Notes: generated from the sequence alone by a model not told the origin. Positions 8,697-17,929 are shown, counted from the first letter of the stretch. The stretch: DNA of 20,000 bases from Reclinomonas americana ATCC 50394 (GCA_048213135.1 PS015205.1:67878-87877), one strand, 5' to 3'. Numbers and translations: made by a program.

Positions 8697-11600
8697 TCAC
8701 ATCATCGCTCCGGCCTCGCTTGCACGAAGCCGACACTCCCCCAACCACTTTGTAGCATCTGCCGTATCGAGATGCTCTCCCCCAAGAACCATTCGTCGAC
8801 CCTCCACACATTCAACCAGTAGCTCCTCTGCCTCGGCCCATAGCTGCTGCTTCATGCGCAGCATGCCGTAGCTGAACAGCGTTTGCAATGTTCTTTCATG
8901 CATGTCACCCAGCACCTCACGTCGCCCCTTCGAGCACTGACGGTACAAGTCAGCAGCTTCCACCAGTGCTTCTTGCAGGCCTTCTCTATACCGCGCACCA
9001 GCAAGATTGTTCATCGAAGTGAGGGTGGCTGGATGCCTATCGCCGAGAGCCGTTCGCCTCAACTGCAAACAGTCACGTTCAAGATGAACTCTCTCTCTCA
9101 GACGACAAACATCTTGGATGCACAAGGCAACGTTGCTCATGGATGCCAATGTTTCTATATGCTCAGCTCCAAGAACCAGTCTTCGCAGCTCCCAGCACTG
9201 CTGCCAGAGTTTCTCAGCATCAGCGTATTGCGGCTGATCGTAGTAATGCCTGCCCTGCCAATGCAGCGTCATAAGGGAGTCCGGATGATATTCACCCAGT
9301 GTCGCACACTGTCGCTCATGACACTGCACCAGCATTTGCAAGTTGTTTGTAAAGTAAGCAAACCACATCGAGCAGCGAAAGGCATCCAACCAATCCAGCA
9401 CAGTCATCTCCCCATTGGCATCACTCTCCCACGCCTCGTACAAACGCCACACTTGTTGGAACGCTGTGGTGCGTTCATCCCGCAGGCGAACCATTTTGAA
9501 CAACCATGCACGACACTTTGCAACAACAACAGCAAACCGTCGTCGCATTGCACTCAGTTCAACATCACCGTCTCCACGTCGTCCGCACTCTGTCACACGT
9601 CGCTCAATTGACGAGGCAACTGCTGTGATGAACCCCACTGAAGGCACTCTTTCTCTGAAACATTGCTCACCAATCCACCCCACCGCCACACACTGCACCA
9701 ACAGCCCATTCACACCAACAACATCCTCGGCCCACATGCCATCATCTTCGCAAAACCGCCGCCACGCTGCGTGCAGTACATCAAGCAAGTCCCGTGACAC
9801 CAACAGCACGCCGTCACTGTCATTCTGTGAATCAATGCCATTCAGCACAGAGCACACCAGTCGCACAATCAGTCGCTGCGCCCGCGACACTGCATTTCCA
9901 TACCGTCCCACAATCCACCCAGCAATCTCATCGTGCACTCGATACTCTACCACCACACCACCACCACTCTCCCTCACTTGCTCACCACACAACAAATGAG
10001 CCACACTGTCGACGCTGCCACTGACACCCACTGTCACCAGATTCGACAAGCACAGACCCTCCAGCACATCCTCCACTCCTTCGCCACCACCACCTCCCAC
10101 CAACTCATCTCGCCGTTCACGCATTCTTCGCTCCTCCTCCTCTGTACTCATCTCGTCAAACTGCAGTCGCTCGCCCACCACCTCGGGTGCACGCCGTCGC
10201 CTCTCCTTCGCCAATTCATGCAGTCGTAGTCGACGCACACACTGACCCAACTCCACCAATCGGCCAGCTGCCTCCTCATCTTCATCCACTGCAGTCTGCT
10301 CACCATCACCGACCACAGCCATCTTCATGTCGGGAATCACACGCAGCACACCCAGCGCCACTCGTGCAAGTGCCACTGTCACCGGCAAGCCGAGTTCCTT
10401 GCATGCCGTGATCAGCACCAACAGACCACGTGCTGCTGCAGTCTGCGACATCACATTGCGTTCCAGCAGCTGTGACAGTGCATCGCCACCAATACCACTC
10501 AGCACCTCTTCCATTCGTGCTCCAACCAGCTGTGCCGGCGATCGTGACAACAACCAGCTGCATGCCAGAAGGGAGAGGAGTAGTGAGTCTTCTCATCCAC
10601 ACCACACACGCACTCATGCTCACTCACCCAACACAAGCACTCACTCGCAGTGCACTCTTCTCCTGCTGTCCACCCTCCAGCGCCTCCACAATTCGTCGTC
10701 GCACATCCACCGGCACCTTGTGGAGCAGTCGCTCCTCCACCAGCTGCACAATGTCCTCGTTCTCCACATTCTCCACTCGCACACATTCCACCTCCGCCTC
10801 GTGCATCATCGAGTCACGAATCTCATCAGCCGCTTGTTCATATCGACTCGTCACCACGACGACCGGTGCCACCATTCCACCTGCACACAGCCAGACACAT
10901 GATGCACATCATGTCAGAACCAAACAACCATCGCAAAATGAGAATTCTCTCTCATGAGTACACGCACCCTCATTAGCACATTGAATAACATTCCTCACTT
11001 GCTCCACCGATCCCGCATTGTCCAGCACCATCACTCCACTCGATGCATGCATCATCTGTCGCAGCAGACGACGTGCTGGTTCCACCTCGCCACTGGCCAG
11101 CAGCGCATCCACCTGGCTGGCCATTCTTCGTCCCTCCGCTTCGTCCACTCGCATCTGTGCTGTCACAAAGGCACGCAGACAACTGCCCAGAGCACTCTCC
11201 GCCTGCAGCACGTGGCAAGGCGAGAGACTGAGTCAGAATACAACCAAAGAGGTGACGCAGCATGAAAAGACATAATGCATGTTCCTCAGCACACACCTTC
11301 ACATGCTCCCTCGCATCACCCACATGACCGCGCATCTCCACCGACACGGCCGATCCCTTCCATCGACGAGTCGCCAGCAACTCGGTCACCAGCAGCTCGG
11401 CCAGGAACGACTTGCCAGTGCCACCATCGCCCGTCAGCACCACCATGATTGGTTGATGGGCTGCGCAAGAATCATAAGCCACAAGACAACATGATGAGAC
11501 ACAAGAATGTGTGGAGAAGGAAGGAAGGGAGAAAGAGAAGGAATACTCAACCATCCACAGCATCCACAATGCGCGTGGCAAGTAAGGCAGCCAGTGCACG

Positions 11601-13099
11601 CCGACTCGGGAAGCGGAATGTGGTCACTGGATTGACAGTGCGGGCGATGAGTGGTGTCTTGGGTGTGAGACTGCTGTCTGGTGCTGCTCGGCATAGAGAG
11701 GAGTGAGCAGAGCTTTGCACAATGCAATGCAGGTCCACCATGCAACACACCTGCTACTGGAGGAGAAGAGGGAGAGATGCTCAATGTGTCAAGCCGCTGT
11801 CGCATGAGCTCAATCTCCGCAAGCAACACAGCCTGATTCTGATCAATCACACGCCAACGAAAAACAATGAGCCATCTGCAAGCGACCGCCTTCCTCATGC
11901 AGATCCACTCAACTTGCTCCATGTGCGCCAGCAACAACGACTGGTCAGCTTGACTCAGTGCACCTACATTCACACAGCCGAGTGAGCATCAACTTCCACA
12001 TTCAATCATCCACCCGCACACATGCACCAGCCACCACTCTCCTCACTCACCATCACGAGCCTCGTTCAGCTGCACCGCCAACTCCTCCTCCACATCCCTG
12101 CCAATCTGCATTCGCCTCACAAGCTGGTGCAACTCGCCCTCTCCTCCTCCGGCACCGAGCAGAGGCACAAAAAGTGAACGAGCTCGTGCGGGACTCGCCT
12201 GCTCAAACACCTCCCTCATTCGTTCAATCGCATTGCGCTGTGTAACAATGAGAGAGTGAGAGACACAGTCACACAAAGAGGGAGATCACACTCTTCCTCC
12301 TCCTTCCCATCTCCTTCTCATTATCGTACACTCACCACATCACCAGCTGGAATCAGACGATCCGGCTCATCTGTCGGGTGCTCTCGATGACCCGCCAGCA
12401 GCAAGATCGAGCAGCACAGCATCGCATCAAATGAAGTGCAGTCGTGCAGCTGGCCTCGCTGACACTCGCGCACCGTCTGGCGCTCCTCCTCGTTCAACTG
12501 GACACACATGTCCACTCCGTCAGGCATGGCGCTGCATGCGGGGAAAGGCACAAGGATGCAGGTGAGTCGAGGGACGTGTGTGACAAGAATGAGGGGTAGT
12601 CATCAGAGATTGAATGTGGAGTTGTGTGTGGCGAGATAATAGAGTGTGCGAGAATGCAGAGATGGGATGACCAGTGCATCACCATCTGCCACTTGCTGCG
12701 TGTCATAATCTTCATCTATTCTCACTCTCATTCACATCTCCAATCTACATCTTGCCATTGTGTGCTTCCACATCCACCCCGCACACACTCACCGCACATC
12801 ACGCTCACTCGGCGCCTTGCACCACTCAGCGACGTGATTCACACCAGGATATGAATCGAGAAACGCCGGCAGCACTTGCTCGAGTTTGGATTGCAGAGCG
12901 CGGGTGCATAGACGAGACAGGGCTTTGGCAAGGCGAATCATGCATTCCTCGTCACCAACATCGTGATGATGACTGCACGAGAGAGGAGAAGAGATGAGTG
13001 ACAGGGAACGAATCACACAATGTGAGAATGATGATGACGTTACACCAACAAAATGAGAGAGACACGAAACTCACGCGGCACTCCACTTCCACTCGCCAT
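8697..13099 (-). CDS. NLR-like protein copy A: HEPN-like N-terminus + STAND (NB-ARC-like) NTPase + TPR repeats, ~1124 aa, 11 exons
   Basis: Exons: 13099-13071, 12972-12793, 12531-12336, 12237-12051, 11963-11914, 11838-11751, 11683-11552, 11460-11297, 11202-10968, 10880-10628, 10557-8697 (3375 nt, in frame). Motifs: Walker A GDGGTGKS (11431-11408), Walker B GVMVLDN, sensor-1-like VVVTSR, degenerate GxP region EALEGG..SALRV, MHD-like YRVHDEI. C-terminal ~42-aa kinesin-light-chain-type TPRs (LGEYHPDSL, LGAEHIETL, LGDRHPATL, LGDMHERTL, LGGEHLDT). Confidence 0.85.
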
Positions 13100-16500: not shown

Positions 16501-17929
16501 ACGAGTAAGCAAACGATGCTCATTTGGCGCAGCTACGGTTTCGAACGTACGTGGAGCAGCGGAAGCTGCAGCAGCTGCCGCAGCAACAGCAGGCGGCGAA
16601 GAAGGCGAGGGGCTCAGTGAGACCAGCTGCACTTGCATGACTTCAACTTGCGACCGTACAGCCTGCATTTCCGACTGCATCTGTTCTTATACGCATATAA
16701 GGGGCAAAAAGGCACAAAGCGCGTGCAGAAATGCCAGCAGCAAGTCCTCGCGCCATTCCACTCAACTTGCTCAATATGTTCAAGCAGCAATGACTGGTCA
16801 GTTTGACTCAGCGCACCTGCGTTCACAAACAAGCAATTAGCATTGCTTGCACATGAAACCATATCAAGCACGGTCCCACTCACCATCGCGAGCCTCGTTC
16901 AGCTGCACCACCAATTCCTCCTCCACATCCCTGCCAATCCGCAGCCGCCGCACAAGCTGGTACAACTCGCCCTCTCCTCCTCCTGCTTCTAAGCCACCAA
17001 GCAGCATCACAAAGAGTGCGCGGGCTCGTGCAGGACTCGCCTGCTCAAACACCTCCTTCATTCGCTCGATCGCATTGCGCTGTGCACGATGAGAGAGTGA
17101 GAGACACAATCACACAGAGAGAGGGAGACCACACTCCTCCTCCTCCATCTCACTCCCACACACTCACCACATCGCCAGCTGGAATCAGACGATCCGGCTC
17201 TTCTCTCGGGTGCTCTTGATGACCCGCCAGCAGCAAGATCGAGCAGCACAGCATTGCATCAAACGAACTGCAGTCGTGCAGATGGCCTCGCTGATGCCAC
17301 TCGCGCACTGTCTCGCGCTCCTTCTCGTTCAACTGGACACACATGTCCATTCCGTCGGGCATGGTGCTGCATGTGGGGGAAGGCACAGAGAAAGAGAGGA
17401 TGCTGGTGAGTGAGGGAATGTGTGTGACAAGAAAGTGGGGGCAATCATCAGGGATAGAATGTGGAGTCGCGCGTGGTGAGACATAGAAGAGTGCGAAGAA
17501 TGGGGAGAAAGGGATGACCAGTGCGTCACCATCTGCCACTTGCTTGTGGAAATCATATCTCTTCTCTCATTCACATCCCCATCTGCATCTTGCCACTTGT
17601 GTACTTCCACATCCACCCACACACACTTACCGCACATCACGCTCACTCGGCGCCTTGCACCATTCGGCGACATGATTCACGCCGGGGTATGAATCGAGAA
17701 ACGCCGGCAGCACTTCCTCGAGCTTGGATTGCAGAGAGCGGGTGCATGGGCGCAATAACGCTTTGACAACGCGCATCATGTATACCGCATCGTCTGTGTT
17801 ACGATCGTGATGATGACTGCACGAGAGGAGTTAGAAGTCACCGAACGATTAACACTGTGAGAAGCAGGTTTTCGCCGGCGAAGCGAATGTGAGACGCAAC
17901 TCACGCGGCACTCCACTCCCACTCGCCAT
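13514..17929 (-). CDS. NLR-like protein copy B: HEPN-like N-terminus + STAND (NB-ARC-like) NTPase + TPR repeats, ~1142 aa, 11 exons
   Basis: Exons: 17929-17901, 17816-17631, 17366-17168, 17079-16884, 16816-16767, 16680-16551, 16484-16344, 16255-16092, 16005-15771, 15688-15436, 15359-13514 (3429 nt, in frame). Intron positions and phases match copy A. Motifs: Walker A GDGGTGKS (16226-16203), GVMVLDN, IVVVTSR, YRVHDEI, TPRs (FGEAHPDTL, LGAEHPDTL, LGAQHPCTL). Confidence 0.85.

Follow-up and report, generated by a model that had tools for sequence, protein, structure and literature searches.

A probable tandem duplicate of an NLR-like gene in Reclinomonas americana, with an N-terminal domain from no recognised family

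The stretch considered here is 20,000 nucleotides (nt) of DNA from Reclinomonas americana ATCC 50394 (GCA_048213135.1, PS015205.1:67878-87877), called the window below. Between positions 8697 and 17929 a 4.83-kb unit is present twice, head-to-tail, on the minus strand. We think it likely that this locus is a tandem duplicate of a eukaryotic gene of the NOD-like receptor (NLR) kind, each copy encoding a tripartite STAND protein whose N-terminus comes from no recognised family. The two genes are designated A (coding sequence, or CDS, 12941-8697) and B (CDS 17779-13514); both lie on the minus strand, in coordinates of the window. In both proteins a helical N-terminus of about 190 amino acids (aa) is followed by a linker of 50-90 aa, variable and low in complexity, then by an NB-ARC-like P-loop NTPase, a helical region that contains the motif YRVHD, about 170 aa of poorly conserved spacer, and a set of tetratricopeptide repeats (TPRs), so that A and B each have the tripartite effector-NOD-repeat architecture. 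A sequence-only reading of this DNA had proposed an effector-STAND-TPR layout with a HEPN RNase as the effector. The layout is borne out by an NB-ARC-like profile match and a TPR array on the spliced models; the HEPN assignment fares much less well.

Two intact paralogous genes

The two units are 78-82% identical in DNA over most of their length. In a blastn comparison of one half with the other, 1317 nt at the 5' end are 81.5% identical and 2184 nt in the middle 78.0%, and the blocks toward the 3' end are weaker. In a six-frame list of open reading frames (ORFs) the coding sequence of both genes is fragmented, the biggest pieces being 631 and 644 codons. Gene models were built from the splice sites common to both copies in a base-by-base alignment of A and B DNA, and were checked by script. 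In these alignment-built models each gene has 10 coding exons in a single open frame, encoding 1104 aa in A and 1120 aa in B, and the introns are all GT..AG, mostly gtgagt...(c/t)gcag, and 66-264 nt long. The two proteins are identical at 764 of 1098 aligned residues (69.6%).

Are both copies functional genes? Where the A and B alignment requires gaps, the lengths of all nine exon runs are divisible by three (3, 9, 9, 33, 9, 3, 6, 3, 9), versus two of the 25 runs in introns. The dN/dS ratio between the copies is 0.276 over 1098 codons, and lies between 0.22 and 0.38 in every region. The contrast in gap runs, together with dN/dS, argues from the alignment that A and B are intact genes under purifying selection, and that the exon borders are right or nearly so. 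The tandem paralogue pair, proposed from a track that displayed it only as fragments, has thus been rebuilt as two open, constrained GT-AG models. The proposed count of 11 exons per gene needs some adjustment: 10 exons of each gene are coding, and the eleventh is a probable 5' leader exon that is non-coding for the main ORF. The outer ends first given for the pair are the last base of the A stop codon (8697) and an ATG in the conserved 5' leader of B (17929).

Intron 5 of B (16550-16485, minus strand) is a special case: it is 66 nt long, in frame and stop-free, and has a good gtacgt donor. Its retention would lengthen the low-complexity linker by 22 residues. In A the homologous intron, of 67 nt, has to be spliced out.

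Divergence between the copies is a mosaic. Over positions 8697-18140, dS is 0.305 for the N-terminal 190 codons, 0.59 for the NTPase part and 1.52 for the TPRs. Between A and B, identity is 80-85% in introns 1, 2 and 6 and 44-65% in the others. Such a pattern suggests that the 5' part has undergone gene conversion, or else that the 3' part evolves much faster.

The NB-ARC-like NTPase

The NTPase module is distributed over exons 6-10, with the Walker A sequence GDGGTGKS at aa 278-285 in A and 299-306 in B. Every motif on which the sequence-only reading had relied (FRFPSRR, GDGGTGKS, VMVLDN, VVVTSR, LGLPVT, YRVHD, SFDAML and RNAIER) is found in both copies at matching positions. For a comparison with the NB-ARC family, a local hidden Markov model (HMM) was seeded with six Pfam-delimited modules and recruited 83 of 183 fetched proteins, of which 81 (NB-ARC/TPR proteins) were kept. 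The spliced A protein scores 23.3 bits with this HMM (residues 250-455) and the B protein 21.3 bits (residues 269-488), while the best of 500 shuffled sequences scores 4.8 bits. When hhalign is used to align the A plus B profile with the NB-ARC module family, the probability is 96.7% (E 3.5e-10 over 256 columns), compared with 0.1% for the reversed query and 10.4% for the best of 40 shuffles of the columns. The alignment pairs FRFPSRR with the F-x-G-R pre-P-loop motif, GDGGTGKS with GlGGvGKT, VMVLDNA with the Walker B sequence LLIFDNA, and VVVTSR with iLvTTR. The HMM and the hhalign comparison, both well above their shuffled controls, support the NTPase of A and B as NB-ARC-like, and of the kind that travels with TPRs.

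The TPR array

Each protein carries five to six repeats of the TPR_10/12 type, 42-45 aa long. Signature sites of the form LGxxHxxT number five in B, spaced by 42, 42, 45 and 42 residues, and A has four sites that fit the pattern, spaced by 42, 45 and 42. In Pfam, the large exon exceeds the cut-off of TPR_12 (30.1) with 64.2 bits in A and 61.1 in B, and that of TPR_10 (27.5) with 55 bits in A and 75.3 in B. An AlphaFold2 (AF2) model of the C-terminal 405 aa, made with the A plus B alignment, has a predicted local distance difference test score (pLDDT) of 80-97 over the last ~215 residues, and 11 helices in the last ~235. Foldseek finds 88 PDB chains at E<=0.001 for this model, the best being the TPR domains of kinesin light chains (KLC1/2; 7ai4_A, E 2.3e-8), and the Podospora TPR array 4y6w is found at E 2e-7. 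The signature period, the profile scores and the kinesin-light-chain-type fold all agree with the array of 42-aa TPRs first proposed.

What are the relatives of the array? A protein search with B exon 10 against proteins of near length gave 63 matches, all through the TPRs and covering 9-41% of the query; the locus's own protein was not found among the 63. A search of longer proteins with residues 390-644 of the same exon gave 1040 matches, and the 120 of these that were listed are NB-ARC/TPR, kinase/TPR or CHAT/TPR proteins. Among the matches listed, the closest relatives are 30-40% identical to the array; they are NLR-like NB-ARC-TPR proteins of fungi, which carry PNP_UDP, HET or patatin N-termini, and TPR proteins of bacteria.

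A further profile, NCBIfam FxSxx_TPR (the TPR protein of the bacterial FxSxx-COOH system), matches 8700-10556 and 13517-15358 at E 1e-19, scoring 70 and 68 bits where the cut-off is 300. The match is driven by the TPRs, and in A it begins ~35 residues before the confidently modelled array.

Evidence that weighs against an NLR-like protein

Several results count against the NLR-like reading, and they concern mainly the NTPase and the region between it and the TPRs. In a Pfam scan made exon by exon, NB-ARC (PF00931) has no match to any exon of A or B. The P-loop exon matches 24 generic P-loop families, all below their cut-offs (the best being AAA_25 with 20.9 bits and nSTAND3 with 20.7), and the other NTPase exons have nothing relevant. 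A phmmer search with residues 1-870 of spliced A against the 63 proteins first matched through the TPRs finds none at E<=10. Judged by these searches, the NTPase is too divergent for single-sequence detection. Among the PADLOC defence models no family matches exon 10 of A or B at E<=1, and exon 7 gives seven weak matches to generic ATPases.

The 385 aa between VVVTSR and the TPRs are harder still to place. As an A plus B profile they have no relative among 1,835,955,588 representative proteins; 113 pattern matches to metagenome contigs include none that tblastn confirmed, and the best match to PDB sequences (E 0.16) is at chance level. The AF2 model of this region has a pLDDT of 38.7 and is unusable. 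When aa 545-760 alone are aligned by hhalign with the winged-helix part of the NB-ARC profile, the probability is 1%. In the hhalign alignment of the A plus B profile described above, the template LPLAI is placed over EKSALRVSACVG, not over LGLPVT. Because this central region has neither a relative, nor a usable model, nor a better alignment, taking YRVHD as the MHD motif and LGLPVT as the GLPL motif is a plausible inference from motif resemblance only.

The N-terminal domain

The N-terminal ~190 aa are encoded by exons 1-4. Is this domain a DZIP3-like HEPN RNase, which would make A and B HEPN-STAND-TPR receptors? We regard this proposal of the sequence-only reading as very improbable. The resemblance behind it is one of pattern and a lead only: a helix-rich N-terminus has an FD-x-x-L-rich hydrophobic helix, SFDAMLCCSILLL, with the RN of RNAIER ~30 residues later, which we take to be like the DZIP3-like HEPN pattern. 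Known fusions lend the proposal some appeal. The entries of Table 1 in PMC3710099 include DZIP3-type HEPN domains fused to TPR and NACHT in animals and expanded in Capsaspora, as well as bacterial HEPN domains fused to STAND-TPR, and the relevant passage of PMC10236652 has DZIP3-like HEPN domains as common at coral NLR N-termini, where the NB-ARC members mostly carry TPRs.

The sequence of the domain argues the other way. As the relevant part of PMC3710099 sets out, HEPN domains have as their hallmark an Rx4-6H in which the residue following the R is polar, and RNase L, RloC and PrrC depend on the His for activity. Rx4-6H is absent from aa 1-250 of A, and in B it occurs only as R67-H74 and R71-H78, neither of which is kept in A. 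The proposed RN lies exactly at the exon 2/3 junction; the residues after it read AIERMR in A and AIERMK in B, so that positions +5 to +7 are R, M, R and R, M, K, without a His. No HEPN family was matched at E<=10 by exons 1-3 of A or exons 2-3 of B in the exon-wise Pfam scan, in which the domain is divided and the motif region straddles the exon 2/3 junction, and none at E<=0.1 in a Pfam scan of ORF fragments. PF18738, the DZIP3-like HEPN family, is absent from all 120 of the TPR relatives listed (of 1040). An ESM Atlas look-up of exon 2 gave a best score of 0.85, with no family and no usable match among named clusters; PDB sequence searches were at chance level for exon 2 (best E 1.8) and exon 3 (best E 0.27). 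An HMM of both spliced N-termini against 303 fetched proteins had a best E of 0.22, and 261 pattern matches of exon 2 to metagenome contigs included none confirmed by tblastn. Since the catalytic His is absent, the N-terminus is most likely not a canonical HEPN RNase.

A degenerate, catalytically dead HEPN derivative, serving as an RNA-binding or oligomerisation module, would account for the same likeness, with the R and N kept and the His lost. We consider it unlikely. HEPN domains that lack the conserved residues are described, in the same part of PMC3710099, as probably inactive, nucleic-acid-binding versions. The N-terminal 190 codons, with dN 0.067 and dN/dS 0.22, are the most constrained part of the protein; the low dS of the region suggests recent gene conversion, however, so that high identity taken alone does not demonstrate constraint. 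Nothing in the way of a profile match or a fold speaks for a HEPN ancestry.

A third possibility, which we entertain tentatively, is an unrelated helical executioner or adaptor, such as a membrane-targeting bundle like those of HeLo, plant coiled-coil (CC) or MLKL proteins, or a death-fold-like domain, that would be activated by proximity after oligomerisation. The protein opens directly with an amphipathic-looking helix, MIRLAKALSRLCTRALQSKLEQVL, and no known family matched the N-terminus. NLR N-termini are diverse, and only 13% of the basidiomycete ones are annotated according to the figures given in PMC4986451. Set against this, the exon-wise scan, with the domain divided across exons, gave no match to HeLo, HET, CC or death-fold families.

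The 5' leader and an upstream open reading frame

A near-identical block lies upstream of both start codons and ends in ATGGCGAGTGG(A/G)AGTGGAGTGCCGC just before a gtgagt donor. The donor is followed by a poorly conserved stretch of 102 nt in A and 88 nt in B, and then by a conserved acceptor, tcgtgcag, with TCATCATCAC directly after it. On the basis of conservation and splice consensus, the block is a probable 5' leader exon in each gene. Its ATG, at 13099 in A and 17929 in B, is out of frame with the main ORF. In the spliced leader this ATG opens an upstream open reading frame (uORF) of 19 codons in A (MASGSGVPLIITMLVTRNA) and 21 codons in B, the first 12 residues being identical in the two (MASGSGVPLIIT). 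In both genes the TGA of the uORF overlaps the main start codon as ATGA (12940-12938 in A, 17778-17776 in B), and a 6-nt indel between the copies leaves this arrangement intact. The main ORF begins with MIRLAKAL in A and MMRVVKAL in B. The conserved uORF may reflect control of translation by termination and reinitiation.

The upstream ATG was also considered as the protein start, and rejected: none of the four possible GT donors gives the phase that the acceptor needs.

How might the proteins act?

If A and B work like other NB-ARC-TPR NLRs, the NTPase would be kept in its off state by the TPR array, which would also be the part that binds a ligand. Ligand binding would free the NTPase from autoinhibition, leading to nucleotide exchange and oligomerisation, and oligomerisation would gather the N-terminal domains and set off a downstream response, possibly cell death. 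A and B are to be seen as candidates for an immune or cell-death receptor role, by the analogy of their architecture.

One might instead think of A and B as scaffolds of the STAND-TPR type, NPHP3-like or AfsR-like, that serve signalling, transcription or the cytoskeleton and not immunity, their duplication being incidental. There are only two copies in the 20 kb, the neighbouring genes are ordinary ones (UDP-glucose 6-dehydrogenase, for example), and Pfam gives a weak TPR_NPHP3 match, below cut-off. The TPR part has a dN/dS of 0.229, with no sign of diversifying selection; two sequences, however, cannot reveal site-specific positive selection, and the closest TPR relatives among the matches listed are mostly NLR-type fungal proteins. 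On balance we doubt that the scaffold explanation is correct, and prefer the tandem NLR-like pair.

A more elaborate scenario, offered here as a conjecture, is that the pair belongs to a lineage-restricted NLR-like family from an unsampled eukaryotic lineage. The ~190-aa N-terminus would then be an undescribed signalling or executioner module, or a HEPN derivative without a nuclease site, and translation would be gated in both paralogues by the conserved uORF with its ATGA overlap.

Features of the locus and its surroundings

The coordinates of the two gene models are collected in Table 1.

Table 1. Positions of genes A and B, their exons and principal motifs in the 20,000-nt window
Feature	Position	Strand	Remarks
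Gene A CDS, 1104 aa	8697..12941	minus	start codon 12941-12939, stop 8699-8697; one open frame, 10 GT-AG exons
A putative 5' leader exon, upstream ATG to donor	13075..13099	minus	intron 13074-12973; conservation and splice consensus
A exon 1, coding part	12793..12941	minus	donor gtgagt; exon itself probably begins at 12972
A exon 2, N-terminal domain	12336..12531	minus	SFDAML 12434-12417
A exon 3	12051..12237	minus	begins with RNAIER 12237-12220
A exon 4	11914..11963	minus	donor gttgag, same in B
A exon 5, low-complexity / helical linker	11751..11838	minus	gene model
A exon 6, FRFPSRR pre-P-loop motif 11618-11598	11552..11683	minus	acceptor ambiguous by 1-2 codons
A exon 7, Walker A GDGGTGKS 11431-11408	11297..11460	minus	gene model and motif
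A exon 8, Walker B VMVLDN 11034-11017	10968..11202	minus	gene model and motif
A exon 9, VVVTSR 10860-10843	10628..10880	minus	gene model and motif
A exon 10	8697..10557	minus	helical/putative winged-helix part (LGLPVT 10394-10377, YRVHD 9944-9930), spacer, TPR array ~9407-8700
Gene B CDS, 1120 aa	13514..17779	minus	start codon 17779-17777, stop 13516-13514
B putative 5' leader exon, upstream ATG to donor	17905..17929	minus	intron 17904-17817
B exon 1, coding part	17631..17779	minus	gene model
B exon 2	17168..17366	minus	gene model
B exon 3	16884..17079	minus	gene model
B exon 4	16767..16816	minus	gene model
B exon 5	16551..16680	minus	next intron 16550-16485 in frame, stop-free
B exon 6	16344..16484	minus	gene model
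B exon 7, GDGGTGKS 16226-16203	16092..16255	minus	gene model and motif
B exon 8, VMVLDN 15837-15820	15771..16005	minus	gene model and motif
B exon 9, VVVTSR 15668-15651	15436..15688	minus	gene model and motif
B exon 10	13514..15359	minus	YRVHD 14764-14750; TPR array ~14227-13517

Upstream of B, the 5' portion of a gene for UDP-glucose 6-dehydrogenase lies at 19169-19999 (plus strand; Pfam UDPG_MGDP_dh_N, E 6.8e-50). Its best database match is 82% identical, and the other matches listed, from bacteria, plants, a green alga and a vertebrate, are 58-66% identical. An in-frame stretch of 23 Ser/Leu/Pro-rich codons after its GAGYVG motif looks like a short intron. On the other side of the pair, an ORF at 7669-8655 (plus strand) has hydrophobic, membrane-protein-like segments and only a weak Pfam match, to PelG, below cut-off. 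Only 41 nt separate its end from the A stop codon, and since it converges with gene A, their 3' untranslated regions must overlap or be very short. Long CT/GA-rich, microsatellite-like tracts occupy ~250-1000, 2100-2500, 3450-4100 and 5300-8200. They read as Ser/Leu/Pro (Gly/Glu/Arg on the other strand) in every frame, and contain many spurious long ORFs.

Relation to known NB-ARC-TPR proteins, and significance

Fungal NLRs, among which effector-NB-ARC-TPR proteins are common, offer a close parallel. As presented in the text of Dyrka et al. (2014; PMC4986451) that deals with their composition, NB-ARC is preferentially followed by TPRs in these proteins, and many N-termini are unannotated. A and B share the tripartite layout of the fungal NB-ARC-TPR NLRs (compare sesB-like/NB-ARC/TPR and PNP_UDP/NB-ARC/TPR in Podospora anserina), the F-x-G/S-R pre-P-loop motif, the hhhhDN Walker B and the TTR/TSR of the NTPase, and the 42-aa, kinesin-light-chain-type TPR_10/12 repeats, with a TPR region 33-40% identical to that of fungal proteins. 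They differ in that the N-terminus is none of PNP_UDP, HET, patatin or TIR, the effectors seen in the matches. The region from the nucleotide-binding domain to the TPRs also has no detectable relative, the TPRs number only five to six, and the NTPase has diverged beyond single-sequence detection.

If their N-terminus is HEPN-derived, A and B have the same module order as the NB-ARC-TPR NLRs with DZIP3-like HEPN domains in corals and other invertebrates (in the sections of PMC10236652 and PMC3710099 that describe them), and the R-N dipeptide stands at the expected kind of place. Unlike those proteins, they have no PF18738 match in the exon-wise scan and no Rx4-6H His.

NB-ARC-TPR families with tandem duplication are reported in brown algae (Teng et al. 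2023, as cited in PMC11378527). With these A and B share their occurrence in a eukaryote outside the animals, fungi and plants, and expansion by tandem duplication, to the extent that the citing passage of PMC11378527 describes it. With the bacterial STAND defence proteins (Avs and HEPN-STAND-TPR) they share the effector-STAND-repeat logic, the TPRs being the sensor in some; A and B differ from those in being spliced eukaryotic genes, with no PADLOC match for exon 10 and an FxSxx_TPR score far below cut-off. Exon structure may separate the pair from the brown-algal genes, in which the TPRs are said to lie on separate, shuffled exons, whereas the whole TPR array of A and B lies in one 1.86-kb exon.

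How unusual, then, is the arrangement? HEPN-STAND-TPR proteins had been thought poorly described in microbial eukaryotes. Such a protein would not be unprecedented there, because the DZIP3 HEPN family is already tabulated as expanded in Capsaspora, which is unicellular (PMC3710099, Table 1). With the bacterial HEPN-STAND-TPR proteins of the same table (Npun_F6454 is an example), the coral NLRs (as portrayed in PMC10236652) and the brown-algal NB-ARC-TPR genes (as summarised in PMC11378527), the scarcity appears overstated. The effector-NB-ARC-TPR architecture is already known; A and B are unusual in how far they have diverged, and in having an N-terminal domain without a family assignment.

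In fungi, invertebrates, brown algae and bacteria, proteins of the NB-ARC-TPR kind are candidate receptors for innate immunity or cell death. The A and B pair could add a new type of effector to the NLR repertoire, because the N-terminus has no family assignment and the central region no detectable relative in 1.84 billion proteins. Each new lineage in which such proteins are found helps to decide whether the NB-ARC-TPR architecture is ancestral or has been assembled repeatedly.

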